64,000 bases of DNA. Source: Eubacteriales bacterium (lineage in GTDB: Bacteria > Bacillota > Clostridia > Oscillospirales > CAG-272). Position 1 is the stretch's first letter. Every line of letters begins with the position of its first letter. The stretch covers positions 18,389 through 82,388 of the forward strand of contig JAZKYO010000045.1 of assembly GCA_045612185.1 (NCBI GenBank), in the 5' to 3' direction. The notes under the pieces are model-generated. The model worked only from the letters and a program-made list of their open reading frames with translations. It was not told where the DNA came from and did no database searches. Shown in pieces: positions 3,523 through 60,533 of this stretch. Made by a program: the position numbers and the translations under genes.

Positions 3523-3696
3523 TTCAGCCTCCTGTAGATTTAATACTGCCATTATAACACGTGCCCTTGTTTGTGTCAACAAAAATGCGCACTTTTTGCA
3601 AAAAAAGGCTGCTTTTTGCATTTGATTTTCTCGTTTTGTATGGTATAATGCAATAAAGAAAACATTAAAAGTTCAAAACGGAACGGAGAAAATCAA

Positions 3697-13514: not shown

Positions 13515-13656
13515 AATTTTTACCTCCCGAAGCTTTTTTTAGTGTATCACATTTTTTAAAATTTGTAAATATAAATTTCCGTATTTTACAAATTTCTTTA
13601 TTCTGCATTGTAAAGTAACGCGATGAATGATATACTGAAAAAAACAGGAGGTGCCT

Positions 13657-15900
13657 ATGTTTGAAATTTTAAGAGATGAATTGCATGATTTTTATTTTCA
13701 CGGTGATGCGGAGAGAGCCAAGGGTTTTTCGGATAAATGCTTTGCTATTATGAATGAGCGAGTATCCGACGGTATGAGCGTGACCGAGCAAAAGTTACTT
13801 CAATACGACGTAATAGTTGAACAATTTGAGCCTACGCTATTCCGCCACACTCCGTATTTTTACGAAACAGGGGTTTTGACCTCTCTTTCTGACGGCGCGC
13901 GGTGGGCGAAGGGACATTCATTTACGCAGGCAAACGGATGGGTCTATAAAAGAAATCAGCATTTGTTTTCCAAGCAGGATGAGGAACTTTATAAGCTGAA
14001 AACGGCACAGGTGTCGGAAAAGCTCTATCTCGTTTGCGGGCCTTATAATGACACGTCTCAGCATTTCAACTTTAATAACCGTCCGTTTTTACAGATGGGT
14101 GCTGTCGGTATATATGAGCGGGCAAAGTCAGAACTTGCAAACGCAAAAAATGATGATGAGAGGGAATTCCTTAATGCGGTTTGCCACGGTATGATCGCTC
14201 TTCGCCGAATGGCTGAGCGATTTGCACAAAAGGCTACTCAAATGCTTTCGGCAGAGAAGGAAGAAGCAGTACGAAAAAATCTTGAGCTGATTGCAAAGAC
14301 CGCCGCACGCGTGCCGTGGAATGCCCCTGAGACTTTTTATGAGGCATTGGCGACTCTCGCGTTTCTCCGTACAGCAATAGGAACACTTGAGGGAGTCGGT
14401 CCCAATACATTCGGTAGGATAGACAAGGATCTGATATCCTTTTACCGCTCAGATATTGAAAAAAACATTATCACCCCCGATGAGGCATATGCGTTGATCT
14501 GTCAATTTTTGCTTATTTGGGACTGTCATTATGACCACGATATGCTGATGGAGGGTTATGCCGATCACGAGCTGGAAAACACCTACACTTTGGGCGGCTG
14601 TGACGACGAAGGCGCTCCGCTTTGCAATGAGCTTACTCTGATGTTTCTGCGTGCCACACGTGAAGAGAATATCATTTTCCCAAAAATAAAATGTCGATTC
14701 TCAAAAAATTCTCCAAAGGAATATTTTGATGAGATGAATATTGCTATCACCGGCGGAACAAGCACGGTGCTACTTCAAAATGACGATGCAACCATTCCTG
14801 CCTTGGTGCGTGCGGGCAGACCTATCGAAGAAGCTCGTGATTATTACGTATCGGGATGTTGGGGCATCGTTACAGCGCAGGAAAAATACGACCACGGAAG
14901 CTATACCAATCTGTTAAAGCCCTTTGAGTTTTCTTTGCACCGTCTTGACGACAAAATGAAGAATGTGGGGATTCGGTTCGAATGTTTTGACGGTTGCGAA
15001 AGCTTTGAAGAGCTTTACAAAAAGACGCTTTCCAATTGCGATAAGCTGTTGTCCGCTAAGCTTGACGTTCTTCGGCGCGGCGGTCAAATTTTTCACAAGG
15101 TAGACCGTTTTCCCATATTTTCCTCTACTCTCGAAGATTGTCTTGAAAACCGTAAGGATTTTACTATGGGCGGCGCAAGGTACAATGACGATTACCACCT
15201 GATGTTCGGACTTCCCAATATTGTGGATTCTTTGCTCGCAATCAGGGAATTGGTCTGGGAACAGAAGAAATATACGCTTGACGAGATATTGACCGCCGTG
15301 CGTACCAACTGGGTAGGATATGAGAATATACGCCTTGATGCGGTGCGCTGTCACGGTTGGGGGGATGGAAGCGAAGCCTCAACAGCGCTCGCCAACCGCT
15401 TTAATAACGACCTGTTTGCAATATGCCAAAAGTATAAGGGGACATATGGCGGCAAGGTACATATGGGACACTTGACTTATACGGAAATTCGTTTTTGGGG
15501 TGAGAAAACGCTGTCAACACCCGACGGACGAAAAAACGGTGAATACTTTGCGCAAGGGCTTACCCCCTCCCGACTTAAACGAATTCCTTGCGTTACCGAC
15601 GTAATAAACAGTATGGCGGCTTTGGATCCGTCTGCAATGGCGGCAGGCTCGGTGGTGAATGTTATTTTACCAAGCCGTATTCCGCTAGAGCAATGCGGTG
15701 CGTTTCTTCGCGCGGTCGCAAGGAGTGCGGTGCAATCGCATCAGCTCAACTGCACCAGCCGCGAGGAGCTTCTTGATGCGCAAAAGCACCCCGAAAAATA
15801 TCCCAATCTTATTGTACGTGTAACGGGTTTCTCGGCAAAATTCACCAGCCTGTCAAAGGAGTGGCAGGATGAGGTGATTTCGAGAAACTTTTATGTGTAA
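13657..15900 (+). CDS. Glycyl radical enzyme, PFL2/dehydratase-like family (GRE-1)
   Basis: The C-terminal glycyl-radical motif is NLIVRVTGFSAKFTSL, with TPDGRKNG upstream and a candidate Cys loop YYVSGCWGIV. Preferred start is ATG 13657 (AGGAGG 5 nt upstream) rather than the tracked GTG 13651. Confidence 0.8.
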   Translation: MFEILRDELHDFYFHGDAERAKGFSDKCFAIMNERVSDGMSVTEQKLLQYDVIVEQFEPTLFRHTPYFYETGVLTSLSDGARWAKGHSFTQANGWVYKRNQHLFSKQDEELYKLKTAQVSEKLYLVCGPYNDTSQHFNFNNRPFLQMGAVGIYERAKSELANAKNDDEREFLNAVCHGMIALRRMAERFAQKATQMLSAEKEEAVRKNLELIAKTAARVPWNAPETFYEALATLAFLRTAIGTLEGVGPNTFGRIDKDLISFYRSDIEKNIITPDEAYALICQFLLIWDCHYDHDMLMEGYADHELENTYTLGGCDDEGAPLCNELTLMFLRATREENIIFPKIKCRFSKNSPKEYFDEMNIAITGGTSTVLLQNDDATIPALVRAGRPIEEARDYYVSGCWGIVTAQEKYDHGSYTNLLKPFEFSLHRLDDKMKNVGIRFECFDGCESFEELYKKTLSNCDKLLSAKLDVLRRGGQIFHKVDRFPIFSSTLEDCLENRKDFTMGGARYNDDYHLMFGLPNIVDSLLAIRELVWEQKKYTLDEILTAVRTNWVGYENIRLDAVRCHGWGDGSEASTALANRFNNDLFAICQKYKGTYGGKVHMGHLTYTEIRFWGEKTLSTPDGRKNGEYFAQGLTPSRLKRIPCVTDVINSMAALDPSAMAAGSVVNVILPSRIPLEQCGAFLRAVARSAVQSHQLNCTSREELLDAQKHPEKYPNLIVRVTGFSAKFTSLSKEWQDEVISRNFYV

Positions 15901-33878: not shown

Positions 33879-35051
33879 TCATTTGAGATATTTTCGAAGC
33901 GTGCAATCGCTGTCACGAAGCAGATCCGCGATCATGGAAGCTACCCAACGGGCCCCCGCCTCTCTTTGGTGGGTTGTGTCGGGAACTTGCACACCGTTTT
34001 CTTTTGTCGATTCGGAATAATAGGTGCTTACCAGATATTCATAGCCCTCGGTTGCCTCAATGGCGCGGATGGCGGCAAGCATATGGGAATTAAGGTCAAG
34101 ACAAGGCACCCTTTTTTCCTCGGCAACGCGCATCATCGCCTCAGGAAAGGCGCGGCGGAAGTTGACCACAGGGCTTTTCTCCACCGTTACGGTAGAGGTC
34201 ACGAACAACAGCGTCACGCCGCGGCGGCTTGCCTCATCGGCAAAGGCACGGAGATTTTCCATATACTGTGCCTCGTCGACTTTTCGTTCGGGCGCGGACG
34301 AGGAAAAATCGTTGATGCCAAGTGATACGATCAGATAATCCCCCTCGCGCATCTCGCGGCGAACGCGAGACCAGAGGGCAAGGCCGTCAGTATTGATAAA
34401 GCTTTGTGTGCTGAAGCCCTGCCGAGCCATATTACACACCTTGATACGGGTGTCGTCCAGCCATTCGCCGATGAACATCCCCCACCCCTTAGTCACAGAG
34501 GTGGCGCTATAGTTGCAGGTAATTGAGTCGCCGATCAGCCAAAGCGTTGTTCGGTTATCGGGGACTTGCTCGACTCTCTCTGCGCGATAGACAAGCTCCG
34601 TCTTGATATCCGCAACAAGAATATTCTCGGCAAGCGGGGTGTTTTTTCCACTTTGTTCCACCGAAATGATAGAGTGCGAATCATCTGCAAGCGTATGGGT
34701 GAATTCAATCGTTGTCCACTCTTTTTTGGTAACCGTCTTGGGCTCGTGTATAAATGCGGGATATAGGGCAAAAAGTTCAATGATGCCAACCGTCACTTCC
34801 GTCTCGTCTACCGAGCATTCCTCGCCCAATCTGACCTGCACCGATATGCGGTATCGGTTGCCCTTCGCGGCATCCTCAAGTGCCTCTACAAACTTCACTC
34901 TGTGCCCCACGTTCTTGCGATTAGCCATCGCCAAGACCATTTTGCCGTCTATTTGTGTCATTTTCATATCGCGGTAATTGTAACCGCCGCCCGTTAAGGT
35001 ATTCTCCGCAAGATCGCGCATTGACCATGTGGAAAAATTAAATTGTTTCAT
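33879..35051 (-). CDS. CBM-like N-terminal domain + SGNH esterase (CE12 rhamnogalacturonan acetylesterase-like)
   Basis: 390 aa. SGNH blocks: LWLIGDSIT (I), LGINDF (III), DTTHQREAG (V). About 165 aa of beta-rich N-terminal domain precede them. Confidence 0.65.
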   Translation of the reverse strand: MKQFNFSTWSMRDLAENTLTGGGYNYRDMKMTQIDGKMVLAMANRKNVGHRVKFVEALEDAAKGNRYRISVQVRLGEECSVDETEVTVGIIELFALYPAFIHEPKTVTKKEWTTIEFTHTLADDSHSIISVEQSGKNTPLAENILVADIKTELVYRAERVEQVPDNRTTLWLIGDSITCNYSATSVTKGWGMFIGEWLDDTRIKVCNMARQGFSTQSFINTDGLALWSRVRREMREGDYLIVSLGINDFSSSAPERKVDEAQYMENLRAFADEASRRGVTLLFVTSTVTVEKSPVVNFRRAFPEAMMRVAEEKRVPCLDLNSHMLAAIRAIEATEGYEYLVSTYYSESTKENGVQVPDTTHQREAGARWVASMIADLLRDSDCTLRKYLK

Positions 35052-35235
35052 TATTCAGACTCCTATGTATAGATTTCCTATATTTTACCATTTTTTAAAA
35101 GTCAATATTCTTTTGCTTTTTTTGTATCTGTTTCTGCGGCAAACCAAAAATTAGTATTGCAAAAATGAGTTCGAATCATATGCCCAAATTACAAAGTATC
35201 GCATTGCCAAAAATCTTCCGGTTTGCACTCGCCGC

Positions 35236-36009
35236 TTACGTTGCTTTATAGTCCTTAGGCGCACACCCTACGCGGCAGGTGAATTCTCTTGAAAAATGCG
35301 AGGGATCCATGTATCCGCACGCCTCCGCCACCTGTCCCACCGAGAGGGCCTCATACGCCAAAAGCTGCTTGGCATATCTGATGCGCAGGGAAATGATATA
35401 ATCCTTCGGTGAGGTACCGAATCTCATAAAAAACAGCTTGCGGAAATATACCTCGCTGATGCCGCAAAGAGCGGCCAACGACGCCACCGTAAGTTCAGGA
35501 TCGGTAAATGACGCGGAAATACGTTCTACCGCGGGCTCGATCAATTGATATTGGGCGTTGGTCTGATATTTCCGCCTTCCTTCTTCAACAAGTTGAAGCA
35601 AGATGTCATATACCGCTTTTTTGGCGGTCAGACAGCGGCAGTCGCTTTGCGTGCGCCATTCCTTTTCAGCAGTTTTGAAGATCTTGACCAGCTTTTCGCT
35701 GTTTCGAAAATGCAATGAAAACGGCTCGCACCAAAAGTCCTCCTCCACCTCAAAATTGATGGCGTAGCATCCACCTCTCGTTTTGGTTTTTACATAATAA
35801 GACGAGCCTTTGGGCAGATAAAACAGGTCACCGCCCGCGGTTTTCATTTCTCTTCCGTCGGAAAAAACGTAGGTCTTTTCGGAGTCTTCGTCGTTCAGCA
35901 CGAAGCCGTGGGACGGACGGTCCTTATGCACAATCCTCCCCGTGTCTGCCTTTACGTATACCACCACGTCGATCTTCTTTACCGTAAGTGAATCCCACTT
36001 GTCAAACAT
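35236..36009 (-). CDS. AraC/XylS family transcriptional regulator
   Basis: 257 aa. ...LTVASLAALCGISEVYFRKLFFMRFGTSPKDYIISLRIRYAKQLLAYEALSVGQVAEACGYMDPSHFSREFTCRVGCAPKDY. Confidence 0.85.
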   Translation of the reverse strand: MFDKWDSLTVKKIDVVVYVKADTGRIVHKDRPSHGFVLNDEDSEKTYVFSDGREMKTAGGDLFYLPKGSSYYVKTKTRGGCYAINFEVEEDFWCEPFSLHFRNSEKLVKIFKTAEKEWRTQSDCRCLTAKKAVYDILLQLVEEGRRKYQTNAQYQLIEPAVERISASFTDPELTVASLAALCGISEVYFRKLFFMRFGTSPKDYIISLRIRYAKQLLAYEALSVGQVAEACGYMDPSHFSREFTCRVGCAPKDYKAT

Positions 36010-36035
36010 AGCATCACCTCAAATTTATTATAAGG

Positions 36036-36096
36036 TGCTGTTTCGATTTTGTCAAGTGTTTATTATAGAATGTTGTTTCGATTTCGTCAAGTGTTT
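36036..36096 (+). promoter_or_regulatory. Two 26-bp direct repeats, candidate AraC-family activator site
   Basis: TGCTGTTTCGATTTTGTCAAGTGTTT (36036-36061) and TGTTGTTTCGATTTCGTCAAGTGTTT (36071-36096) have a 35-bp period and end 11 nt before the -35 of the 36210 promoter. Direct-repeat half-sites abutting the -35 are the classical AraC/XylS layout. Confidence 0.5.
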
Positions 36097-36107
36097 TGCT
36101 TTTTCTA

Positions 36108-36135
36108 TTTACATTTCAGGGGAACGTGTTATAAT
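36108..36135 (+). promoter_or_regulatory. Promoter of 36210..37634
   Basis: TTTACA (36108-36113), 16-nt spacer, TGtTATAAT (TATAAT 36130-36135). Confidence 0.5.
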
Positions 36136-36209
36136 AGGAACAATGGCGATGATGCGTAACGTGTCGGCGCTTACGATTACGAATGTGCAATTATTGCGGA
36201 GGGTATAGC

Positions 36210-37634
36210 ATGGAACATTCACTGAATTTCTTTGGAAATGAGTTGGCTGAAAAATTTTCGAAAATCGTCAATACAAGCTTCAACGATATGGAAGGGCTTT
36301 TGCTTGTGCGCAACCGAGAGGATCCGCTTTACGGATATTGCTACCAAGCATTGCCCGGCTTTGGCGGCCGCAATTCCATGTGGTGTCGCGATATGGGAAC
36401 GCTCATTCGCGAGTTGGCGCTTTACGGTCGTCTTGACAGTGCGTGTGCTCTTTCTTCCTGTTTGATTGACCGTGTGGGACTGAATGTGGACGGCTATTAC
36501 ACCTTCCCCCGATTTTTTACTCAGGTCGAGTACGGAAAAAGCGGCGATGAGCTTGACGGCACGGGTGCGATTGTAATCGGGCTGATCCTGCTTTGGGAGC
36601 GTCTTTCGGACGATTGCCCCACGAAAAAGAAAATAAGAGATTTTTTGGAATGCAAAGCCTCCCCCATCCGTTGGATTCTGTCCAAACTCAAAGACAAAAA
36701 ATTGATTGAGGGAACGGGTGAATTTGGCTCGGGATATACCATTGAGTCGCCAAGCTGCAATGCGGTACAGAATAATCTTGTCAGGCTGTCTCTGATCGGC
36801 GGTGCTGATTTCTTCGCCGCTATCGGTGAGAAAGGGCTTTCGGGCGAGTGCCTTAAGGCTTCACGGATCATAGAGGAAAACATTTGCCGCTATCTGATCA
36901 AGGACGGCAAACTTGTCTGGTGCGTTGACCCCGAAACCCTTGAACCCAACCCCGAAATCATAGGAGCGGAGATCAACAGAGGCACGACATTTATTAACGG
37001 TGTCTACGTTATGTCCGCGGATATATTGGGTCTTGGTTTTACCAAAGAGGATGCGCCCCTTTACCGCGCGGGTGAGAATACCTTTGACGATCTGATGGAA
37101 CGTCCCCTGCGCAAGGCGCTTTTTGAAAAATACGGAATGTATCAGCAATTCGACGATTTCTGGAAGGGCTTTACGGGTCCTGCCTACGGACACGGCTACG
37201 CTATGCAGTTTGCCGCATTGACGGGACGTCGCGCTCTTTTGAACCGGTTGCTCGGTTATTTTGTTGACTACACCATCAACCCCGATCCCCTGCCCAACAA
37301 GTTGGTGCGAGAGTCTCCGTACTGGATCTACGAGCGGTATTACGTTCCCGAAGCCTTGGATTTCGGAACGATCCCAGAGGCCTCCTGCGGACCGCTTACC
37401 ATCGTTTGTGTGACCGAGATCCTCAAGGTGGCGCGACTGATTGCGGGCATCGACCACGTAACGGGCGAGATCAAGCCCACACTTCCCGAAGGTTGGAGCG
37501 GCTTTTCTGCCAAGGGATTCCCTATGCTGAAGGACGGTAAGACGGTGATGTGCGACATTGAGTACCGTATTGACGGCGACGGTAAGGTGTCGCTTGAGGT
37601 GAAGCATCAAACGTCTGACGCAACATCACAATAA
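36210..37634 (+). CDS. Hypothetical protein, possibly a helical (alpha/alpha)-barrel glycosidase-like protein
   Basis: 474 aa from ATG 36210 (GGAGGG RBS). I recognise no diagnostic motif. The position between an AraC gene and GH genes suggests a carbohydrate-active role. Confidence 0.35.
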   Translation: MEHSLNFFGNELAEKFSKIVNTSFNDMEGLLLVRNREDPLYGYCYQALPGFGGRNSMWCRDMGTLIRELALYGRLDSACALSSCLIDRVGLNVDGYYTFPRFFTQVEYGKSGDELDGTGAIVIGLILLWERLSDDCPTKKKIRDFLECKASPIRWILSKLKDKKLIEGTGEFGSGYTIESPSCNAVQNNLVRLSLIGGADFFAAIGEKGLSGECLKASRIIEENICRYLIKDGKLVWCVDPETLEPNPEIIGAEINRGTTFINGVYVMSADILGLGFTKEDAPLYRAGENTFDDLMERPLRKALFEKYGMYQQFDDFWKGFTGPAYGHGYAMQFAALTGRRALLNRLLGYFVDYTINPDPLPNKLVRESPYWIYERYYVPEALDFGTIPEASCGPLTIVCVTEILKVARLIAGIDHVTGEIKPTLPEGWSGFSAKGFPMLKDGKTVMCDIEYRIDGDGKVSLEVKHQTSDATSQ

Positions 37635-37645
37635 GAGGTGATTTT

Positions 37646-37933
37646 ATGGAATTCATTTTGGGATGTAACTATTGGGCGTCCAATGCGGGCGCGGATATGT
37701 GGCGTGATTTTGATATCGAGTGCATTGACAAGGATATAAGGATTCTCAGCGAGTACGGCGTGAAGCATATGCGAGTGTTTCCCAACTGGCGGGATTTTCA
37801 ACCGGTAGAGCCGATTCTCGGTGGCAGTGGCGTTTTGCTGGGATACACCGTCAAAGAGCAACCGATTTCGTCAAGTGGTTTTGCTTTTATCATTTACAAA
37901 AGCCTAAAAAATGATATAATGTATGTGAGGTGA
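37646..37933 (+). pseudogene. 5' fragment (first about 74 codons) of a paralog of the clan GH-A gene at 43713
   Basis: MEFILGCNYWASNAGADMWRDFDIECIDKDIRILSEYGVKHMRVFPNWRDFQPVEPILGGSGVLLGYTVKEQPI matches 43713.. at 67 of 74 residues, with many synonymous DNA differences. Similarity ends at about 37866 and the frame runs into promoter-like DNA. Confidence 0.75.
37893..37920 (+). promoter_or_regulatory. Promoter of the GRE-2 operon (duplicated copy of the 36108 promoter region)
   Basis: TTTACA (37893-37898), 16-nt spacer, TGaTATAAT (TATAAT 37915-37920). The segment 37863-37898 is about 90% identical by eye to 36079-36113. Confidence 0.55.
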
Positions 37934-37937
37934 TAAT

Positions 37938-40157
37938 ATGGAATACATCAAGAACTGCGATTACGATTATATTATAAACAAATATCACGACACAAATAAG
38001 CCCTATAACAGCCTTAGCCGTTTTGTCCGCAATGACGAAATATTCGACGAGGACAGCGGAACCGAATACTTTACCCTTAAGGCGCAGGTTATGGAGAACG
38101 ACGAAAAGATAGCTCATCTTTCGCACAACGTTCGCAAGGCAACCGCCTTTGCAAAAATTCTTGAGGGTACAAGAATTTCCTGCGACAGCCGAGACCGATT
38201 TCCTGCCATAAATGCGATTTCACGCCCTCTTTCCGACCTGCAGGGCAAGTGGCGCAAGGAGCTTTTCAACGAAATTCTACCCGAAATCGGCAAGAAAATG
38301 ATTGAACTTGAAAAGGCGGGCACGGTAACTATCTGGCCCGACTTCGACCACGCCGTTCCCGATTGGGTGGTTATTTTAAACCGCGGCTTCAGCGGTATTC
38401 TTGAGGACAGCGAAAAATCCTGCGCTTCTAAGAAGTGGGACGAGGAAAAGGACAGCTTTTTCGAGGGTGTAAAAATAACCTACGAGGCAATAATCGCCTT
38501 TATCGACCGTCTTGCCGACCGTGCCGAAAACACAGATGGCTCGCAAAGAATGGCAAAGGCATTGAGAAACATTGCTCACAATCCCCCCTCTACTTTCTAC
38601 GAGGCACTTCTTACCAACTATCTTTTCTTTATGATTTGCGAGCACGTTGACAATATGCAGGTGCGCTCCCTCGGAAACTTTGACAGAGAGTTTTATCCTT
38701 TCTACAAAAACGACCTGGCAAACGGTATCAGCGAGGAGGAAATACGCACAGACCTTGCATATTTCTTTATGCAGTTCACCGCCATTGACAACTACTGGAA
38801 TCAGCCTGTTTATCTCGGCGGGTGCGACGAAAACGATATTGCAATCACCAACGAGCTTTCCTATCTCTTCCTTGAAGTTTATGACAAGATGGGAATATTC
38901 AATCCCAAAATTCAGCTTAAAATTTCAAAATCCACACCCAAGGAATTTACTCTTAAGGCACTTGACATGGTGCGCAGAGGTCACAGCTCTATTGTTTTTG
39001 TCTGCGACGAGACCATGAGAGCCGCACTTCGCAAGATTGGCGCCAGCGAGGAAGAAGCAAGGCTTTGCGATGTTAAGGGTTGCTATGAATACTCGGTTCG
39101 AGGGGCATACGACGTGGGTATGAACTACCTTAATCTCTTAAAGCCTCTTGAGTATGCGCTTCACTGCGGAAAAGACGGAGTTACCGGTGTTATGGGCGGT
39201 CTTGAGTGCCCCGCACCCGACCAATACAAGAGCTTTGACGAAATCCTTGCGGAATACAAGCGTCAGCTTAAATACATCATCGACGTAACCATTGAGACGG
39301 TAAACACCTTTGAAGATTATCTTGACTACGTAAACCCCGCATTTGTATTTTCGGCAACATTCCCATCCTCATTAAACAGCGGTATGTCGGCCACCTGCGG
39401 AGGTGCGCTTGACAACAACTCTGGGCTTGCAGTCGGCTTTACCGCAGATATAGCCGACTCCCTTGCAATGATAAAGAAGTACGTCTTTGACAAAAAAGAG
39501 ATTACCCTTTCGGAGCTTACCGAAATTCTCGACAAGAACTTCGAGGGTAACGAGCTGTTAAGACGAAAGCTGTTTAACGACCCCGACAAATTCGGAAACA
39601 ACAAAGATCTCCCCGACGGCATCGCCAAGGAGATTGTAGGCTACATCACAAGCCTTGTAAGCCACCGCAAAAACGCCAAAAAGCGCGGCGGCATCTGGGA
39701 CGTGGGCTACCACACGGCAAGAATGTGCTATGTTCAGGGCGAAATCACGGCGGCTTCTCCCAACGGCAGACACCTTGGTGACGAGCTTGCAAAGAATCAC
39801 TCGGCATCTATGGGACAAAACAGAGCGGGCGCAACGGCGGCAATTCTTTCAACCACCAAGCTTGACGCCCCCACGTACAGAGGCGACAGCTCACTTGACC
39901 TTGGGCTTCTTCCCTCCGCTGTAAAGGGAGACGACGGTCTTGAGGCAATGTACGGACTTTTGCGCACCTTTATGGACAAAGACGGGCATGCGCTTCAAAT
40001 AAACGTTCTCAACGCCGACACACTTCGTGACGCTCAAGTACATCCCGAAAAATATCAAGACCTGCAAATCCGCGTTTGCGGCTGGAACGTGCTGTGGAAT
40101 AATATAAACAAGGAAGAACAGGACGGATTTATCAAACAGGCTGAGGGACTTATATGA
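37938..40157 (+). CDS. Glycyl radical enzyme, PFL2/dehydratase-like family (GRE-2)
   Basis: 739 aa. The C-terminal motif is DLQIRVCGWNVLWNNI. The candidate thiyl loop is DVKGCYEYSV (Cys-x-Glu). SPNGRHLG stands at the position of the TPDGR motif. GAGGTG RBS. Confidence 0.8.
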   Translation: MEYIKNCDYDYIINKYHDTNKPYNSLSRFVRNDEIFDEDSGTEYFTLKAQVMENDEKIAHLSHNVRKATAFAKILEGTRISCDSRDRFPAINAISRPLSDLQGKWRKELFNEILPEIGKKMIELEKAGTVTIWPDFDHAVPDWVVILNRGFSGILEDSEKSCASKKWDEEKDSFFEGVKITYEAIIAFIDRLADRAENTDGSQRMAKALRNIAHNPPSTFYEALLTNYLFFMICEHVDNMQVRSLGNFDREFYPFYKNDLANGISEEEIRTDLAYFFMQFTAIDNYWNQPVYLGGCDENDIAITNELSYLFLEVYDKMGIFNPKIQLKISKSTPKEFTLKALDMVRRGHSSIVFVCDETMRAALRKIGASEEEARLCDVKGCYEYSVRGAYDVGMNYLNLLKPLEYALHCGKDGVTGVMGGLECPAPDQYKSFDEILAEYKRQLKYIIDVTIETVNTFEDYLDYVNPAFVFSATFPSSLNSGMSATCGGALDNNSGLAVGFTADIADSLAMIKKYVFDKKEITLSELTEILDKNFEGNELLRRKLFNDPDKFGNNKDLPDGIAKEIVGYITSLVSHRKNAKKRGGIWDVGYHTARMCYVQGEITAASPNGRHLGDELAKNHSASMGQNRAGATAAILSTTKLDAPTYRGDSSLDLGLLPSAVKGDDGLEAMYGLLRTFMDKDGHALQINVLNADTLRDAQVHPEKYQDLQIRVCGWNVLWNNINKEEQDGFIKQAEGLI

Positions 40158-41020
40158 CAAGCTCACCCATTACGGTAATAAGGCAAAACAGATGTGTTAT
40201 CGGCGAGGGACCCGTATGGAATGCGGCTGACGAAAAACTTTATTTCGTCAACGCCAGGGGGCAAAACGAAATATGTACATACGCACCCGAAACAGGGATT
40301 ATTTCGGCGCGTGCTTATGACGAGGGCACATCTGCGATCGCCTTTTCAAAAGACGGCAGAATGCTGGTGTCACGCAGAAGCGGGGCGTTCTACTTGAACG
40401 AGGACGGCTCGACCTCACCGCTTTATGACTGTGAAAAATACGATTTGCGATACTGCAACGACGCCAAAGTGGGACCCGACGGAAGATTTTACGTTGGAAC
40501 GCAAAGCGAAAAACGTGTTAAGGTGTCGGACAAAATAAACGGCAGGCTCTACAGTATTGACAAAGACGGCAACGTGCGCATTTTGCTTGAGGGTCTTATC
40601 CTTTCCAACGGCATGGAGTGGTCAATTGACGAAAAATTCTTTTACCATACCGACAGCGACACGTGGACTGTAAAAGAATACTCCTTTGACAAGCAAAGCG
40701 GAGATATTGAATTTACAGGCAGACAGATAAAAGTTCCCTATGTTGACGGGTTTACAATAAACCAAAACGGTTACTTGCTTGCCGCTTGCTGGGGGTGCGG
40801 TCACATTGCCGTGATAGACACCGCCGACATGAGTATACACGAGCACATTCCGATTCCCGCATCAATCCCCGCAAGCTGCGGATTTTTCGGCGATAACATG
40901 GATATGCTGGCAATAACCACCGCAAGCTACAACGCCGACCTTACAAAAGATGAAAACACAGGTTACCTGTGCACGGCACAAATGAAAACAGGAGGAAGAA
41001 AACCCTACCTTTTCGGTTGA
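40154..41020 (+). CDS. SMP-30/gluconolactonase/LRE family beta-propeller (lactonase-like)
   Basis: 288 aa. RCVIGEGPVWNAADEKLYFVNARGQNEICTY...CNDAKVGPDGRFYVGT...SNGMEWS...YHTDS... ATGA overlap with the GRE-2 stop (40154-40157). Confidence 0.7.
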   Translation: MTSSPITVIRQNRCVIGEGPVWNAADEKLYFVNARGQNEICTYAPETGIISARAYDEGTSAIAFSKDGRMLVSRRSGAFYLNEDGSTSPLYDCEKYDLRYCNDAKVGPDGRFYVGTQSEKRVKVSDKINGRLYSIDKDGNVRILLEGLILSNGMEWSIDEKFFYHTDSDTWTVKEYSFDKQSGDIEFTGRQIKVPYVDGFTINQNGYLLAACWGCGHIAVIDTADMSIHEHIPIPASIPASCGFFGDNMDMLAITTASYNADLTKDENTGYLCTAQMKTGGRKPYLFG

Positions 41021-41026
41021 AAAACA

Positions 41027-41956
41027 ATGATAAATTCAAAAAACAGTTTAAAAACTCTCATGCTCGCCCTTTTGGTAATGGCGCTTTGGGGCTCGCTTTT
41101 CCCCATGATAAAAATAGGATACGCATCATTCAGCATTGCGTCATCAGACATTCCCACAATTATACTTTTTGCGGGAATGAGATTTACATTCAGCGGAATT
41201 ATTCTCATCGCTATTTTCTCTGCCAAATCTAAAAGCTTTGCCGTGCCAAAGCGGTGCGAGATATTGCCGATACTCCTTGGCGCGCTTGTAACAATAATCC
41301 TGCACTACATCTTTACCTATCTTGCACTTTCAATCGGAGAGGGCTCAAAGACCGCAATAGTAAAGCAGATATGCTTTCTTTTCCTCAGCTGCTTTGCCTT
41401 TCTGTTTGACAAGAGCGACAAGTTTACGGTCAATAAAGTTATAGCCGCAATTTTTGGATTTGCGGGAATAATTGCCACGGCATACGACGGAACGGCAATT
41501 GTATTTATGCTTGGCGACATTTTGCTTCTTTTAGCTTCAGCTTGCTCGGCGGCGGGAACTGTAATTTCAAAAAAAGCAACGCAAATTGTAGCACCTATGA
41601 AATTTGTAGCTTACTCCCAGTTCTTTGGCGGTGTATTTCTTCTTGCCATAGGATTGATACTTGGCGGAAGAATAACACACGTTGACGCAAAATCAATCGG
41701 AGTATTTCTCTACATATGCGCGGCATCAATAACGGCATACACGCTTTGGAATATGCTCCTTAAGAGCGAAAGTGTGTCAAAGCTTTCGATAATAAAATTC
41801 ACAGAACCGCTGTTTGCCGTCATATTCTCGGGTATGATCTTGGGCGAGGATATTTTCAAGCTCTCCTACCTCGTTGCCCTCGTTCTGCTGCTTTTGGCGT
41901 TACTCACGGAAAACGGCGTTTGGAAGCCCATTCGAAAAAAGGAGAACAAGAAATGA
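41027..41956 (+). CDS. EamA/DMT family permease
   Basis: 309 aa, about 10 TM segments, two EamA-like halves. Confidence 0.7.
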   Translation: MINSKNSLKTLMLALLVMALWGSLFPMIKIGYASFSIASSDIPTIILFAGMRFTFSGIILIAIFSAKSKSFAVPKRCEILPILLGALVTIILHYIFTYLALSIGEGSKTAIVKQICFLFLSCFAFLFDKSDKFTVNKVIAAIFGFAGIIATAYDGTAIVFMLGDILLLLASACSAAGTVISKKATQIVAPMKFVAYSQFFGGVFLLAIGLILGGRITHVDAKSIGVFLYICAASITAYTLWNMLLKSESVSKLSIIKFTEPLFAVIFSGMILGEDIFKLSYLVALVLLLLALLTENGVWKPIRKKENKK

Positions 41957-42594
41957 AAAAGGTTTTATTGATAGGAGATTCCATTCGTCAAGGCTACGAC
42001 AAATACGTGAAGCAGGTGCTTGCCGATTCCTGCGAGGTGTATTATCCCAAAGAAAATTGTCGATTTGCTCAGTTTGTCCTCCGTCATTTATCCGATTGGA
42101 AGAGGGAACTGAATCTCGGTGACGACGTGGATGCGGTTCACTGGAACACGGGACTTTGGGACACTCTCGTTCAATACGGGGACGGATGTCTAACACCCCC
42201 TGAGGTGTATGAAGCTTTCATCGATAGGATCTGCCGCAGAATCCGCGTGCTTTTTCCAAACGCTAAGGTCATCTTCGCCACCTCTACTCCCGTTGTGGAA
42301 AGCCGCTTCCCCAACCCCGCTGTTTCCCACAGAAAAAACAGAGACATCGAAAAATATAACGAGATCGCCGCGAATATTGCAAAGAAATACGGCTTTTTCG
42401 TCAACGACCTGTACGCCGCCGTCAAAGATGTGCCCGAGGATTATTATTCCGATATGACGCACTTATACACCCCCGAGGGCACCCGCATTCTTACAAGCGC
42501 GGTACTGCGCTCCATTTGCTCTGCCCTTGAGCTTGACACCGTCGAATTTACCATCTCGGATTATCAGGCGATCAAAGACGTTTTGGGTCTTTGA
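41953..42594 (+). CDS. SGNH/GDSL hydrolase (esterase)
   Basis: MKKVLLIGDSIRQGY (block I), HWNTGLWD (block III-like), YSDMTHLY (block V D-x-x-H). The start overlaps the permease stop (ATGA, 41953-41956). Confidence 0.7.
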   Translation: MKKVLLIGDSIRQGYDKYVKQVLADSCEVYYPKENCRFAQFVLRHLSDWKRELNLGDDVDAVHWNTGLWDTLVQYGDGCLTPPEVYEAFIDRICRRIRVLFPNAKVIFATSTPVVESRFPNPAVSHRKNRDIEKYNEIAANIAKKYGFFVNDLYAAVKDVPEDYYSDMTHLYTPEGTRILTSAVLRSICSALELDTVEFTISDYQAIKDVLGL

Positions 42595-42669: not shown

Positions 42670-42692
42670 AGCAAAAAGGCTCTCTTTTTGCT
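42670..42692 (+). terminator. Weak hairpin terminator/attenuator after the SGNH gene
   Basis: AGCAAAAAG-GCTCT-CTTTTTGCT (9-bp A/T-rich stem) directly abuts the next -35. No separate U-tract. Confidence 0.3.
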
Positions 42693-42720
42693 TGACAAGC
42701 ATTCAATATAAGTGTATAAT
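42692..42720 (+). promoter_or_regulatory. Consensus SigA-type promoter for 42806..45560
   Basis: TTGACA (42692-42697), exactly 17 nt, TATAAT (42715-42720). Confidence 0.6.
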
Positions 42721-42805: not shown

Positions 42806-43690
42806 ATGACTTTTGAAAAATACGGAACCTCGCCCGTTTTCGGAAACGCCGATACAGGCACCGTGTTCGACGGCTACGTCTGGGTGGATGGCGGAAGATA
42901 CAGAATGGACTTCTCCTGGCGCGGAAAAAAGGCGTGCGCCGTAACCTTCAGCGACGACGGGATCCATTGGAGCGAGCCTGTCATCACCCTTGCCAACGAT
43001 CTCGCAACGGGTTGGGAGGACGATCTGAACAGAAACTGCGTACTGAAGGTAGGAGACGTATACAAAATGTGGTACACCGGGCAGGCGCGCGGTTACAGTT
43101 ACATCGGTTATGCGGAGAGCAGTGACGGAATACACTTTGAGCGCCGGTCCACCGAGCCGATCATAATTCCCGAACTGCCCTGGGAGCGTGAGTCTGTAAT
43201 GAACCCCTGCGTTTTATTTGAGAACGGCGTATACCGTATGTGGTATTCTGCGGGCGAAACTTACGAGCCTAACGTAAACGCATACGCTGAGAGCGTCGAC
43301 GGTATCCATTGGATAAAGAGCCGTATAAACCCCATTTTCACAAAAAACAAACATAACGTATACGAGCAGAACCGTGTTGGAGGTTGCCACGTCATTCACA
43401 CGGAGGATATGGGATATCTTATGTTCTATATAGGCTATGAGGACATTAACACGGCTCGCATCTGCGTGGCGAGAAGCAAGGATGGTATTCGGGGCTGGGA
43501 GCGTTCCTCTCTCAATCCCCTTATCGAGCCTACCGCGGGAAGTTGGGACAGTGAAGCGACCTACAAGCCTACGGTGGTGTGGAACGAAAAGGACGGAAAA
43601 TGGATGCTTTGGTATAACGGCAGGACGGAAAACAGAGAATATATGGGCTATGCCTACCGAAACGGTAGAGATCTTTTTCCCGAAACGTAG
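42806..43690 (+). CDS. Five-bladed beta-propeller glycosidase-like protein (GH43/GH117/GH130/GH32 superfamily)
   Basis: 294 aa with five repeats of the pattern [YF]-x-[MF]-W-Y ... S-x-DG-I-x-[WF] (FSDDGIHWSEP, AESSDGIHFER, AESVDGIHWIK, RSKDGIRGWER, KWMLWYNG). No signal peptide. Confidence 0.5.
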   Translation: MTFEKYGTSPVFGNADTGTVFDGYVWVDGGRYRMDFSWRGKKACAVTFSDDGIHWSEPVITLANDLATGWEDDLNRNCVLKVGDVYKMWYTGQARGYSYIGYAESSDGIHFERRSTEPIIIPELPWERESVMNPCVLFENGVYRMWYSAGETYEPNVNAYAESVDGIHWIKSRINPIFTKNKHNVYEQNRVGGCHVIHTEDMGYLMFYIGYEDINTARICVARSKDGIRGWERSSLNPLIEPTAGSWDSEATYKPTVVWNEKDGKWMLWYNGRTENREYMGYAYRNGRDLFPET

Positions 43691-43712: not shown

Positions 43713-45560
43713 ATGGAATTTATTTTAGGATGCAATTATTGGGCATCAAACGCCGGTGCCGATATGTGGCGTGATTTTGATATTGAGTGCATTGACAAGG
43801 ACGTCCAGATCCTCAGTGACTACGGCGTAAAGTATATGAGAGTGTTTCCCAACTGGCGGGATTTTCAACCCGTAGAGCCTGTTTTGGGTGGCGGCGGTGT
43901 TCTTTTGGGATATACAATAAAGGAACAGCCTATACCCGATAATCCGTATTATCTTGACACCGAGATGCTTGATAAATTTTCCTTGTTTCTCGACGTTTGT
44001 AAAAAGTACAACATCAAGATTATTGTGGGGCTTATTACAGGCTGGATGAGCGGAAGGCTTTTTGTTCCTCCCGCTTTGTACGGAAAAAACGTGATCTCAT
44101 CGCTTACGGCGCAGTACTTTGAACAGCTTTTTATAAAGGGCTTTATCGAGCGCTTCATTGACAGAGAGGAAATTTATGCGTGGGATCTCGGAAACGAGTG
44201 CAACTGTACGGGCGGTGCCGAAAACCGCTGGGAAATCGCAAGCTGGGTTGCAATGATGACAAACGCCATAAAAGCCGCCGACAGCAGCCGCCCCGTGATT
44301 TCGGGTATGCACGAGCTTTATGTGGCGCAGAAAAAATGGACGATTGCCGACCAAGGGCTTTACGTGGATATGCTTACTACCCACCCATATCCGTTCTGGT
44401 GTCAGCATACAGGCATTGACGAAACTCTGTCTTTAAGAACAACCATGCACGCCACCGCGCAAACAAAGCTTTATGCCGAAATCGGCGGAAAGCCCTGCCT
44501 TGCCGAGGAGATAGGAACTATGGGACCTTCGATTTGCAGTGAAGAAAAGGCGGCAGACTTTTTGAGAGTGAATATGTTTTCTTTGTGGGCTAACGGCGCC
44601 GGCGGAGTAATGTGGTGGTGCGCCCACGACCAGAATGAGCTTGAAAGCAACCCCTACAGCTATCAGATGGTTGAAAGGGAACTTGGTATGCTTTACAATG
44701 ACCGCACACCCAAGCCCGTGCTAGGGGAAATGAAGAAATTCTCCTCTTGGATTGACAAACTTGATTTCAAGCTGCCTGCGGCACAGACCGATGCGGTTTG
44801 CCTGCTGACACGAGACCAAAACCACTGGGGCGTGGCTTACATGACCCACATACTTTGCAAAAAGGTGGGGCTTAACTGCAGATTTGCTTATGCCGATAAT
44901 CGACTTCCCGACTCAAAGCTTTACATAATGCCCTCAATAAGCGGTATTCAGATCATGCCCAAGAGCAGATACGACGAGCTGAAAAAGAGGGTTCGCGAGG
45001 GCGCTGATCTGTACATATCCTGCGGCAATGCGGTGTTAAGCGAATTTGAGGAGCTTACGGGGCTTAAGGTGATGGATTCCTATACGTGTAACGAATCCTT
45101 TAATGCGCAGATAGGTGACGAAAGTATCGCCTTTTCCCGTCCGAGAACTGTGACTGTCAAGCCTGTTTCTGCTGAGGTACTTGCATACGACAGCAATAAT
45201 AATCCTTTTGTTTCGGTAAACAAATACGGTAAGGGCAGAGTGTTTTTTGTAAACGCACCGATTGAAGGTAATCTCATTGAAAAGCACAACGCATTTGACG
45301 GCAATACGCATGTTGTGTACCGCAAAATTTTTGCGGATCACATAAATAATTACCCCGTAGAGCTTTCAAACAAGGATATTGTATTTACCTATCATCCCGT
45401 AAAGGACGGCGGATACGTTGTGGCGCTTAACCACTATGACGAGGAAAAGGAATTTGCCCTTAAGCTTAGTGACGGCTATTCGGTAGATAAGATCTATCAC
45501 GGCGATACGCGGAAAATCAATCCCTTTGACGCTTGCGTGTTCAAAATAGTAAGAAAGTAA
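43713..45560 (+). CDS. Clan GH-A TIM-barrel glycoside hydrolase with GH42-like C-terminal domain
   Basis: 615 aa from MEFILGCNYWASNAG. The tracked ORF start at 43437 would overlap the upstream gene. WDLGNECN (acid/base) and CLAEEIGT (nucleophile). Confidence 0.65.
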   Translation: MEFILGCNYWASNAGADMWRDFDIECIDKDVQILSDYGVKYMRVFPNWRDFQPVEPVLGGGGVLLGYTIKEQPIPDNPYYLDTEMLDKFSLFLDVCKKYNIKIIVGLITGWMSGRLFVPPALYGKNVISSLTAQYFEQLFIKGFIERFIDREEIYAWDLGNECNCTGGAENRWEIASWVAMMTNAIKAADSSRPVISGMHELYVAQKKWTIADQGLYVDMLTTHPYPFWCQHTGIDETLSLRTTMHATAQTKLYAEIGGKPCLAEEIGTMGPSICSEEKAADFLRVNMFSLWANGAGGVMWWCAHDQNELESNPYSYQMVERELGMLYNDRTPKPVLGEMKKFSSWIDKLDFKLPAAQTDAVCLLTRDQNHWGVAYMTHILCKKVGLNCRFAYADNRLPDSKLYIMPSISGIQIMPKSRYDELKKRVREGADLYISCGNAVLSEFEELTGLKVMDSYTCNESFNAQIGDESIAFSRPRTVTVKPVSAEVLAYDSNNNPFVSVNKYGKGRVFFVNAPIEGNLIEKHNAFDGNTHVVYRKIFADHINNYPVELSNKDIVFTYHPVKDGGYVVALNHYDEEKEFALKLSDGYSVDKIYHGDTRKINPFDACVFKIVRK

Positions 45561-45660
45561 TTATAGCACCGAAGAGCGGTCACGTGACCGCTCTTCTTTT
45601 ATGCTTTGTTTTCTTAAAATAGCCTCAATCTATTGAACTTTCCACTTCTTCTGAGGCTAA
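45561..45660 (+). repeat. Modular intergenic repeat, copy G (terminator form 2, M)
   Basis: TTATAGCACCGAAGAGCGGTCACGTGACCGCTCTTCTTTTATGC (hairpin 45571-45596 then TTTT) parallels copy A at 2181-2224. Then AAAATAGCCTCAA and TTGAACTTTCCAC. Confidence 0.75.
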
Positions 45661-52284: not shown

Positions 52285-53010
52285 TTAAGACGGATGTTGT
52301 TTGCGGTACTGAAGCGGCGAAAGACCGATGTGCTTTTTAAAGCAGGTGGAAAAATAAAATGAGTCGCGAAAGCCGCACTTAGTAGAAATACTCTCGATGC
52401 TTTCGTAAGGATTAATGATCAACAGCTGCTGTGCGCGGGCGATGCGAAGATCAATGAGATAATTATGCGGCGTTTTTTGTGTTTTTGCCTTGAAGCATCT
52501 TCTCATATAGTCTGTATTGTAGCCTATATTTTTAATTGCTTCGGTAAGATCAAAGTCGCAATTTTCAAGATTTTCAAGAATTGTATTTTTCAAAAGCTCT
52601 ACTATGGAATTCTGATTTTCTTTAGAGGAAAAGCGTTTTGCGTATTGAATCAATGCATCCAAAAGACTGCCGGCGATACGTTGATAATTGTCCTCTTTTT
52701 TATTCATAATTCCATGGATCATCCAAGCCAGTGACTCTGTATAGGATTCGTTGTCATGAAGTACGAGAGGTTGGGAGATATCCGTAGAATCGCAATGAAT
52801 TACCAAATCGAAAAACTGTCCTTGAGAATAATCGGAATGAAATATTTCAGGGGGAACACAATAAAGATCACCCTTGGATACCATATAAGTTCTATCACCT
52901 ATCGTGGTGTGACTGTCGCCGCAAAGGCGATAAACGATCTCGAGACAACCGTGCTTATGTTTTGATGAACGGGAAATATCAGAATTTATTAAAGAAAACA
53001 AAACCTTCAT
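52285..53010 (-). CDS. AraC/XylS family transcriptional regulator
   Basis: C-terminus: ...LTEAIKNIGYNTDYMRRCFKAKTQKTPHNYLIDLRIARAQQLLIINPYESIESISTKCGFRDSFYFSTCFKKHIGLSPLQYR. Preferred start is MKVLFSL (53010). Confidence 0.85.
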   Translation of the reverse strand: MKVLFSLINSDISRSSKHKHGCLEIVYRLCGDSHTTIGDRTYMVSKGDLYCVPPEIFHSDYSQGQFFDLVIHCDSTDISQPLVLHDNESYTESLAWMIHGIMNKKEDNYQRIAGSLLDALIQYAKRFSSKENQNSIVELLKNTILENLENCDFDLTEAIKNIGYNTDYMRRCFKAKTQKTPHNYLIDLRIARAQQLLIINPYESIESISTKCGFRDSFYFSTCFKKHIGLSPLQYRKQHPS

Positions 53011-53275
53011 ACTCTTACCTCTCAATTATAGCCCCATAATAACATAAAAGGTCGGTTTTGTCAAGATTTTGGTCTGCATATAATATTCACTTTTGGCTCA
53101 ATCGTGTTTATAATGGATATATCACCTGGGTTTTGCGAGAGACGCTGTAGTTTTAAATGGTTCACTATCTTACAGGGGCGGGTATTCTTATTCACTTCTT
53201 CACGATGTGGGCGATGCTTACGGCGGTTTCCGTTGGGCGGTTATCTGAGAGCATATACTTTACAAGGAGGTACAT

Positions 53276-59769: not shown

Positions 59770-59789
59770 GTAAACAAGAGGTGAGGATT

Positions 59790-60533
59790 GTGAATGTTGA
59801 GGATTTTGTTATAATAGAGTTTAACAATATATATACGGCAAACAATCAGAAAGGAAAGCTGATTGAACTAAAAAACAGACATTGCTCTTGTTTTATCGTA
59901 ACCCTTAGCGGCAGTATAAAATTTACGTATGAAGGCGGAAGCGTTGTGGTTGACAGTACGCACCCGGTTTTTATTCCGGAAGGGTTAAGTTATATAAACG
60001 AGTGCCTTGAGGACGCCCAAAGTTTGGTTTTCGGTTTTCATACGCTTGATAAATATCAATTTCCGTTCGTTCTTTCACATATTTCACATAGGCTGGCAGA
60101 AGAGAGGTACGAGGCGATTGAAAAAGCTCTTATGTCGGGGGCGCGTGAAAAGTCGATGCTCGTGCTTGGTGAGCTGTATTCGTTGGCGGCATTACTTTTT
60201 TCGGCATCAGAAAAGCTCTCATCGGGAGACGTTATAATAAAAAAAGCAACCGAATATATTTATTCAAATTACAGTGATCCGACGCTCACCGTGTCTGCTG
60301 TGGCAGAGCAATGCTTCGTCAGTGAGATATACCTCAGAAAGCTTTTCGGCAAGAAGCTTGGGATAGCGCCTTTTAAATTTATCACCGAAGTCAGAATGTC
60401 CCGCGCAGAGGGGTTGGCAAGAGAACGTATTCCGGTTAAAGAAATAGCTGTCTCCGTGGGCTTTTCCGATATTTATCAGTTCAGCCGCGCGTACAAAAAG
60501 TATTTTGGGTATCCGCCGTCGGAAACGATTTGA
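59790..60533 (+). CDS. AraC/XylS family transcriptional regulator
   Basis: C-terminus: ...LTVSAVAEQCFVSEIYLRKLFGKKLGIAPFKFITEVRMSRAEGLARERIPVKEIAVSVGFSDIYQFSRAYKKYFGYPPSE. I prefer GTG 59790 (GAGGTGAGG RBS) because the tracked GTG 59781 lies within about 12 nt of the -10. Confidence 0.8.
   Translation: MNVEDFVIIEFNNIYTANNQKGKLIELKNRHCSCFIVTLSGSIKFTYEGGSVVVDSTHPVFIPEGLSYINECLEDAQSLVFGFHTLDKYQFPFVLSHISHRLAEERYEAIEKALMSGAREKSMLVLGELYSLAALLFSASEKLSSGDVIIKKATEYIYSNYSDPTLTVSAVAEQCFVSEIYLRKLFGKKLGIAPFKFITEVRMSRAEGLARERIPVKEIAVSVGFSDIYQFSRAYKKYFGYPPSETI

Follow-up and report, generated by a model that had tools for sequence, protein, structure and literature searches.

Within a 64,000-nt stretch of contig JAZKYO010000045.1 from an Eubacteriales bacterium (assembly GCA_045612185.1), hereafter the window, a 95-codon open reading frame (ORF) lies between the gene for a 474-aa protein and the gene for a glycyl radical enzyme (GRE), here called GRE2. 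A gene for an AraC-family regulator, AraC_w, is divergent from this group on its upstream side, and GH-A, a full-length glycoside hydrolase (GH) gene of the GH5 type, lies further downstream (Table 1). The regulator has the C-terminal double helix-turn-helix (HTH) domain of the AraC family, GRE2 has both domains of a glycyl radical enzyme (PF02901, E=3.9e-97; PF01228, E=8e-21) with HypD, PFL2, and glycerol dehydratase as its best PDB relatives (E about 1e-67), and the solved structures in the PDB nearest to GH-A are endo-beta-mannanase 7bob and GH5_18 enzymes. The original prediction for this locus saw in the 95-codon ORF a recombination junction at which a truncated paralog of GH-A abuts a promoter block that is also found next to araC. 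The junction is real: it is present in 10 independent assemblies, including a metagenome-assembled genome (MAG) from GenBank (L002; JAZSPB010000101.1, "Eubacteriales bacterium"), the JGI contig L001, and seven ENA contigs from different samples (L021-L027), and an assembly chimera is thereby ruled out.

The left part of the ORF corresponds to codons 1-74 of a GH5-like paralog and keeps its own ribosome-binding site (RBS; 37635-37642). This remnant (37646-37866) aligns with the start of GH-A (43713-43933) over 221 nt without a gap, with 180 of 222 nt and 67 of 74 aa identical, and the similarity to GH-A ends at 37866, at ...CAACCGAT, as had been noted. By the Nei-Gojobori method, the two sequences differ at 32.5 of 44.7 synonymous sites (pS 0.73, saturated) and at 9.5 of 177.3 nonsynonymous sites (dN 0.056), which corresponds to a dN/dS of about 0.02 at saturated dS. 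The paralog is thus long diverged, as originally proposed, and was under purifying selection for nearly all of this divergence, the truncation being recent on that scale; the unconstrained share of the divergence is a few percent at most, and the paralog must have been functional until it was cut. The same values rule out an ancient in situ tandem duplication of GH-A followed by decay. As expected of a gene remnant, the homology stops abruptly at a non-coding junction and the codons beyond it are not conserved as protein; the DNA of the ORF tail is homologous to promoters. Similarity to the native araC-GRE2 spacers of relatives starts at CGATTTC, so that the joint (37863-37866) is a 4-nt microhomology, CGAT, assignable to either partner, which is the usual signature of illegitimate recombination.

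To the right of the joint, 37863-37898 aligns with 36079-36113 with 34 matches and three one-base gaps, bearing out the repeat described in the original prediction. The local score of 45 compares with 16.3 +/- 2.5 in dinucleotide shuffles (n=2000, none of which reached 45), and the next-best local score anywhere in the window is 27; the shuffles together with this window-wide scan rule out chance similarity of the two promoter segments. The motif TTTCGATTTCGTCAAGTG occurs three times in the 64 kb (36041, 36076, and 37860) against 0.05 expected. Both copies of the block end in the hexamer TTTACA and are followed by the extended -10 element already reported, making up two promoters, P1 upstream of the 474-aa gene and P1' upstream of GRE2, each of which matches the sigma-70/sigma-A consensus at 11 of 12 positions with the additional TG. 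The junction coincides exactly with the left edge of the block, all of which is retained in P1'. What had been taken for AraC-type direct repeats upstream of P1 turned out to be the complete divergent araC promoter, present as two 35-bp units in tandem, rather than half-sites. On the minus strand, one unit reads TTGACA-17-TATAAT (36055-36027, 12/12) and the other TTGACG-17-TATAAT (36090-36062, 11/12). This duplication is also present in L002, and a single unit is found in all six outgroup spacers.

GRE2 homologs form a graded series, with amino acid identities to GRE2 of 89% (L018), 87% (L003/L004), 86% (L019/L020), 81% (L005), 76% (L006), and 74% (L007, a paralogous locus in the same MAG as L002). 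The GRE2 context was recovered at all of these (eight loci in six lineages, with L007 as a further, paralogous locus), and at every one a divergent AraC-family gene lies immediately upstream of the GRE2 ortholog (74-91% aa identity), separated from it by a spacer of 109-135 bp with one copy of the block. These native spacers have a common plan. The left part, ATTATA-17 nt-CGTCAA, is the minus-strand araC promoter TTGACG-17-TATAAT; the middle is the near-invariant block CGATTTCGTCAAGTG(G)TTTTGnTTTTATCATTTACA, ending in the GRE2 -35 hexamer; and the right part is a 16-17-nt spacer followed by the extended -10, with the same short leader, GAGGTGATAATATG, in L006 and L007. From CGATTTC through the -35, -10, and Shine-Dalgarno (SD) sequence to the GRE2 ATG, P1' (37863-37937) is colinear with the native spacers; upstream of CGAT it adjoins GH5 coding sequence. 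For P1, the similarity to the native spacers is confined to the stretch from ATTATA to TTTACA, its -35 being that of the native block but its -10 and 74-nt leader being unlike those of native GRE promoters. Overlapping in the block, the left-hand half of P1 and the right-hand half of P1' therefore add up to a single native spacer, which makes 36114-37862 the extra material. This colinearity also identifies P1' as GRE2's own promoter and not, as had been supposed, as a duplicate of P1 by which GRE2 is now driven: within the 34-nt block, P1' differs by 1 nt from L003, L006, L018, and L007 but by 3 nt and one indel from the window's own P1.

Across 10 promoters, about 30 of the approximately 36 alignment columns of the block are invariant, even though the linked AraC proteins are only 54-91% identical. 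Because this invariance exceeds what two hexamers can explain, the block is the better operator candidate, and it is probably, to judge from conservation, the AraC operator ending in the GRE2 -35. Its core motif was found only in araC-GRE spacers and at the junction, and inspection of the sequence reveals a weak direct repeat within the block, in which GATTTCGTCA recurs as GATTTTATCA at a period of about 19-21 bp.

Table 1. Features of the araC-GRE2 locus and the genes downstream of it (window coordinates).
Feature	Position	Strand	Remarks
AraC-family regulator (AraC_w), 257 aa	35236-36009	-	Pfam HTH_18 E=1.1e-19, HTH_AraC E=1.6e-15
35-bp tandem duplication	36024-36093		Each unit a complete minus-strand araC promoter; repeat family D4, 86% identity
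Conserved regulatory block, copy 1, CGATTTCGTCAAGTG...TTTACA	36079-36113	+	Putative AraC operator and -35 hexamer
P1, hybrid promoter of the 474-aa gene	36108-36135	+	TTTACA-16-TATAAT with TG
Putative inserted segment	36114-37862	+	Flanked by the two block copies; in outgroups araC and GRE2 are 109-135 bp apart
474-aa protein	36210-37634	+	(alpha/alpha)6-barrel glycosidase-like fold by AlphaFold2 (AF2) model
95-codon ORF	37646-37933	+	GH5-like 5' remnant (37646-37866) and promoter-read tail (37867-37933)
Conserved regulatory block, copy 2	37863-37898	+	Cut exactly at left edge
Allelic cassette P1'-GRE2-SGL-EamA 5' part, L018/L003 type	about 37868-41777	+	Swapped relative to L002-type strains
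P1', native GRE2 promoter	37893-37920	+	TTTACA-16-TGATATAAT
GRE2, glycyl radical enzyme, 739 aa	37938-40157	+	Dehydratase/PFL2 type; Pfam PFL-like and Gly_radical
SGL/lactonase-like	40154-41020	+	
EamA transporter	41027-41956	+	
GDSL esterase	41920-42594	+	
GH130/GH32N-like	42806-43690	+	
GH-A, full-length GH5-like (beta-mannanase-like), 615 aa	43713-45560	+	Pfam Cellulase E=5.5e-08 (weak)
Strong intrinsic terminator, the first after P1 and P1'	45571-45596	+	11-bp stem, 7 GC pairs, then T run

The direction of the event was judged from these spacers and from AraC and GRE trees that were built from the same loci and comprise few taxa. AraC_w is 90-91% identical to its L002 ortholog, 68-70% identical to the L007 paralog, and 54-61% identical to the AraC proteins flanking GRE2 in L003, L005, L006, L018, and L019; in the AraC tree, the window and L002 proteins together are sister to L007. 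In the GRE tree, L002 and L007 group with L006, while L003 with L018, and L005/L019, are placed alike in both trees. This agreement for L002 implies that its AraC and its GRE2 share one history, as do ancestral neighbours. On these comparisons, the adjacency of araC and GRE2 is the ancestral state, and tree congruence together with outgroup parsimony favours an insertion into a resident araC-GRE2 control region over an arrival of GRE2. The junction is thus probably explained by an insertion that split the native araC-GRE2 promoter, with the block being copied in the process, and the 474-aa gene and the remnant are most likely inserted material, rather than the remnant being a resident GH gene truncated by an incoming GRE2 block, as originally proposed. 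That GRE2 is under the control of the regulator at 35236-36009, as had also been proposed, is very likely from the conservation of the block; the part that does not stand is that GRE2 was newly placed there, since the ancestral adjacency and the congruent trees indicate that it was kept.

On the proposed insertion, the ancestor would have had araC and GRE2 in divergent orientation, with a compact spacer of about 110 bp containing the araC promoter, the approximately 36-bp block, an extended -10, and only a very short leader. A segment of about 1.7-2.3 kb would then have entered right after the -35 hexamer in an ancestor shared by the MAG L002 and the window organism, bringing its own -10 and leader, the 474-aa gene, probably a gene for a YgjV-like protein, and 74 codons of a functional, diverged GH5 paralog, and its right end would have been joined by illegitimate recombination at CGAT to the left edge of the block. 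The outcome would be two copies of the block, with a hybrid P1 (36079-36135) serving the new gene and P1' (37863-37920) representing the native GRE2 promoter minus everything upstream of the block. The 35-bp duplication of the araC promoter would have followed, and in the sub-lineage of the window the P1'-GRE2-(SGL)-EamA cassette would later have been replaced by an L018-like allele. Homology-facilitated illegitimate recombination and Campbell-type integration are both known biology. The former is a plausible mechanism here, with an anchor in araC or in the block and the illegitimate joint at CGAT; alternatively, a circular intermediate may have been integrated by a Campbell-type single crossover, which would account for the 35-bp direct repetition. 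The signs of a mobile element that were looked for are lacking: the ORFs include no transposase, inverted repeats are absent at 36114 and 37862, the repetition measures 35 bp where a target-site duplication would have 2-14 bp, and no integrase is present at the junction. Composition was also considered as a sign of foreign origin and was set aside, the third-position GC content (GC3) of the insert being 0.59, within the range of the window.

Several results weigh against this insertion. An uninterrupted araC-GRE2 spacer was not recovered within the AraC clade of the window and L002, and a donor locus carrying the 474-aa gene, the YgjV-like gene, and a full-length paralog was not found in the scans; the direction consequently rests on outgroup parsimony and on the congruence of trees with few taxa. 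In the window, P1 resembles P1' no more closely than either resembles orthologous promoters elsewhere. In L002, the two block copies are identical at 34 of 34 positions and have lineage-specific states in common (A at block position 8; TTTTTCTATTTAC), which fits a true duplication at the insertion or a later gene conversion, and this identity could thus reflect gene conversion instead of the original event. Among the searches for the ancestral or donor arrangement, the scan of genome contigs returned only L002, the first metagenome scan gave no match, and a search with a degenerate DNA pattern of the junction peptide gave chance matches and one GH-A ortholog. The literature that was searched held nothing relevant on this AraC-GRE family.

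The direction first proposed, in which araC, P1, the 474-aa gene, and the GH5 paralog formed a resident operon and the GRE2 block arrived with, or acquired, the P1 operator and -35, truncating the paralog at codon 74, accounts for a junction, a truncated paralog, and a shared block that are all real. It would also suit the 34-nt identity of P1' and P1 in L002, the position of the remnant close behind the 474-aa gene with its own RBS, like a resident downstream gene, and the linkage of the 474-aa gene to a GRE operon elsewhere (L010). However, every other sampled member of the AraC_w clade directly flanks a GRE; this direction needs the loss of AraC_w's original GRE partner and an incoming GRE that happens to mirror the phylogeny of the L002 regulator; beyond the -35, P1' has the sequence of a native GRE promoter instead of that of P1; and no related contig shows the ancestral order that had been predicted, a full-length GH-A paralog directly behind the 474-aa gene. 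We consider it unlikely. No duplication would be needed if two homologous AraC-controlled modules had been fused, either by plain illegitimate recombination or by its homology-facilitated form, with P1 coming from the donor, P1' from the recipient, and the identity in L002 arising by later gene conversion. The block is conserved throughout the family, so two homologous copies would be expected; the window's P1 and P1' differ by 3 nt and an indel, P1' being nearer to foreign orthologs; and the locus is visibly mosaic. Such a fusion presupposes that the donor had an araC-type promoter ahead of the 474-aa gene, an arrangement not seen in L008-L010, and it is still an insertion between the resident araC and GRE2, differing only in the origin of the first block copy; we hold it to be very unlikely.

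We give hardly any credence to the 95-codon ORF being a conserved, functional small gene (a leader peptide, a device for translational coupling to GRE2, or a stand-alone GH5 N-terminal peptide), in spite of a reading frame that is intact in 10 of 10 strain sequences, a strong RBS, a stop codon 4 nt before the GRE2 ATG in both haplotypes, and a ratio of nonsynonymous to synonymous change (omega) of about 0.1 between the window and L002, because its tail occurs in three unrelated versions, one of them frame-shifted, over DNA that is conserved as promoter, because no Pfam family matches it and the catalytic residues are absent, because homologous N-termini in other organisms run on into full GH-A-like (GH5) bodies, and because the low omega is confounded by a mosaic import. 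The tail (37867-37933) reads across the promoter and ends at a TGA (37931-37933) inside the GRE2 SD sequence GAGGTGAT (37927-37934). Its three versions among strains are SSSGFAFIIYKSLKNDIMYVR, SSSVLLFLFTFFKKVLQC[N/D]WR, and the frame-shifted TDFIKCFAFSIYFFQKNITM, and the window's version is the translation of L006 promoter DNA at 74% identity. Missing from the remnant are the NE acid/base motif (GH-A residues 161-162) and all that follows it, including the region where the nucleophile of a clan GH-A enzyme is expected; ending so far before this motif, the remnant cannot be a glycosidase. The omega value comes from 13 synonymous and 6 nonsynonymous differences, and 14 of these 19 form a cluster at nt 72-133 that is peculiar to L002. 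Between the window and the other strains, 1-5 of the 222 sites of the remnant differ, or 1-2 where the L002 5' variants are absent, matching the baseline strain divergence of about 1% in the adjoining 3' end of the 474-aa gene. The apparent purifying selection on the remnant thus dissolved into one clustered, imported L002 tract, and the test is uninformative. Given the three tails, we infer from these sequences that the ORF is a translated or translatable, harmless by-product without a function of its own. The RBS and first codons of the ORF (37635-37656) and of GRE2 (37927-37948) are identical at 19 of 22 positions, GAGGTGATnnnATGGAATnCAT, a likeness that is probably due to the SD sequence plus chance.

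The leaders of araC and GRE2 are mirror images of each other, both reading TATAAT, 6 nt, GAGGTGAT, 3 nt, ATG (36007-36032 and 37915-37940), and the two segments are 81% complementary over 26 nt. This layout implies 5' untranslated regions of about 11 nt, with the SD sequence at the very 5' end of both mRNAs. The RNA fold z-score of the leaders is +1.6, and no Rfam covariance model matched in 35900-38100 at E<=1. Terminator-like sites between the 474-aa gene and GRE2 were absent over 37258-38351, and because no terminator intervenes, GRE2 and the genes downstream of it are predicted to be transcribed by read-through from P1 in addition to P1'. The 474-aa gene would be expressed from the hybrid P1. 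AraC is predicted to bind the block at both promoters, and both would depend on AraC because each keeps the whole conserved block.

Strains that share the junction differ around it. The window and L002 are 70-72% identical in nucleotide sequence across 38189-40155 compared with 93-97% in the flanks, with high identity resuming at about 41777; L002 lacks the SGL gene, which the window and L018 both have. GRE2 of the window groups with those of L018, L003, and L019, whereas AraC_w groups with those of L002 and L007, and this difference in placement indicates that the window cassette is a later allelic replacement. One species-level population is thus seen to carry two GRE2 alleles, 73% identical in amino acid sequence, at the same locus (window 37868-41777 and L002 12230-15269), one with and the other without the SGL lactonase-like gene, in the manner of a cassette. 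Among the strain contigs, allelic divergence starts at 37870, inside the block, so that two events end within the same few bases, the insertion of the 474-aa gene and GH5 remnant at 37863 and the exchange of the 73%-identical GRE2 alleles from 37870. It is conceivable, if rather unlikely, that the block, with its operator and -35, being common to araC-GRE modules, acts as a portable recombination joint for the shuffling of cassettes. If so, modules would be exchanged, and new genes wired in, through the homology of a regulon-specific operator in these gut Clostridia, and the junction would sit exactly at the edge of the block because no rearrangement would survive without an intact activator site.

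Other differences concern gene content. A gene for a YgjV-like inner-membrane protein lies between the 474-aa gene and the remnant in L002 (11404-11982), L024, and L026, and is absent from the window (37606-37645), L001, L021-L023, L025, and L027. A GH63/MGH1-like gene (L002 17079-18557) lies between the GH130-like gene and GH-A in L002 and is absent from the window. The GDSL/CBM gene on the minus strand of the window (33879-35051) is located downstream of GH-A in the opposite orientation in L002, and the DNA upstream of araC in L002 is unrelated (L002 20603-21395 against window 34481-35181; L002 8364-8571); unless the MAG is misassembled, the block from araC to GH-A differs in context or orientation between the two genomes.

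The 474-aa protein matched no Pfam family and no PDB sequence. Its AF2 model (pLDDT, the per-residue confidence score, 94; pTM, the predicted template-modelling score, 0.93) has an (alpha/alpha)6 barrel and a C-terminal beta-sandwich, and the best Foldseek matches are a GH78 rhamnosidase, GH94, and GH121, with TM (template-modelling) scores of about 0.6; on this confident model, the protein is glycosidase-like by fold. Homologs are rare, at 94, 88, 76, and 65% identity, followed by about 40% in Acidobacteria and Verrucomicrobia. The 88% homolog lies in L010 (3-1750), 11 nt downstream of a different GRE, which is 53-55% identical to GRE2 over the C-terminus, and this suggests that the orphan (alpha/alpha)6 protein is functionally linked to GRE pathways. 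No GH-A paralog was found beside the homologs in L008-L010.

Elsewhere in the window, a second glycyl radical enzyme gene (13651-15900) adjoins a divergent araC gene as GRE2 does. A radical-SAM activase was not detected by Pfam among the ORFs of at least 150 aa in the 64 kb; in relatives, an activase is present within a few kb (L003 4938-5690, L007 229-1116, and L019 3093-3923). A perfect consensus promoter, TTGACA-17-TATAAT, lies within the operon at 42692-42720, upstream of the GH130-like gene, and is overlapped by a minus-strand terminator-like hairpin (42693-42669). The window has seven AraC-family regulators (2701-3621, 9008-9868, 12771-13514, 35236-36009, 52285-53025, 59781-60533, and 60612-61391), all adjoining glycoside hydrolase, esterase, or GRE genes, which makes it an unusually dense AraC-controlled carbohydrate array.

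The resident module resembles araC-araBAD and rhaSR-rhaBAD in that a dual-HTH AraC-family protein is divergent from its target operon and in that a conserved block abuts or overlaps the target -35 and overlaps the regulator's own promoter, a layout that would be compatible with activation plus autoregulation, as in divergent AraC/XylS modules. Unlike those systems, it has a very compact spacer of about 110 bp with mirror-image short leaders on both sides, its target is an uncharacterised glycyl radical enzyme operon, and it is split by a 1.7-kb insertion with the operator block present twice. GRE2 shares its PFL-like and Gly_radical domains with HypD, glycerol dehydratase, and PflD/YbiW, which is context only and does not bear on the junction. 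Gene remnants arising from illegitimate and homology-facilitated illegitimate recombination are known from work in Acinetobacter, Streptococcus pneumoniae, and Pseudomonas stutzeri. As in those cases, a 5' gene fragment ends here at a 4-nt microhomology joint, and one side of the event is homologous (araC and the operator) and the other non-homologous, with no insertion sequence, integrase, or terminal inverted repeat; unlike them, the insert is flanked by a 35-bp direct repetition, and its mechanism is read from the scar only. The locus also resembles promoter capture, in that the incoming 474-aa gene would use the resident operator and -35 with its own -10 while the resident operon keeps a second copy, and the evidence points to the 474-aa gene, not GRE2, as the captured party.

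In summary, the junction belongs to a known kind of event, a gene remnant together with a split and duplicated promoter, of which it is a well-resolved case, and it does not establish a new kind of system. It offers a clean natural example in which an insertion splits a compact, activator-controlled divergent promoter in such a way that the newcomer gains the activator site and the resident keeps a copy, and the evolutionary direction first proposed for it is corrected. The glycosidase-like 474-aa orphan is tied to GRE operons in two independent contexts. The comparison with relatives also yields a conserved candidate operator, about 36 bp long, which could guide regulon prediction for the large and uncharacterised family of glycyl radical enzyme operons that are linked to AraC genes in gut Clostridia.

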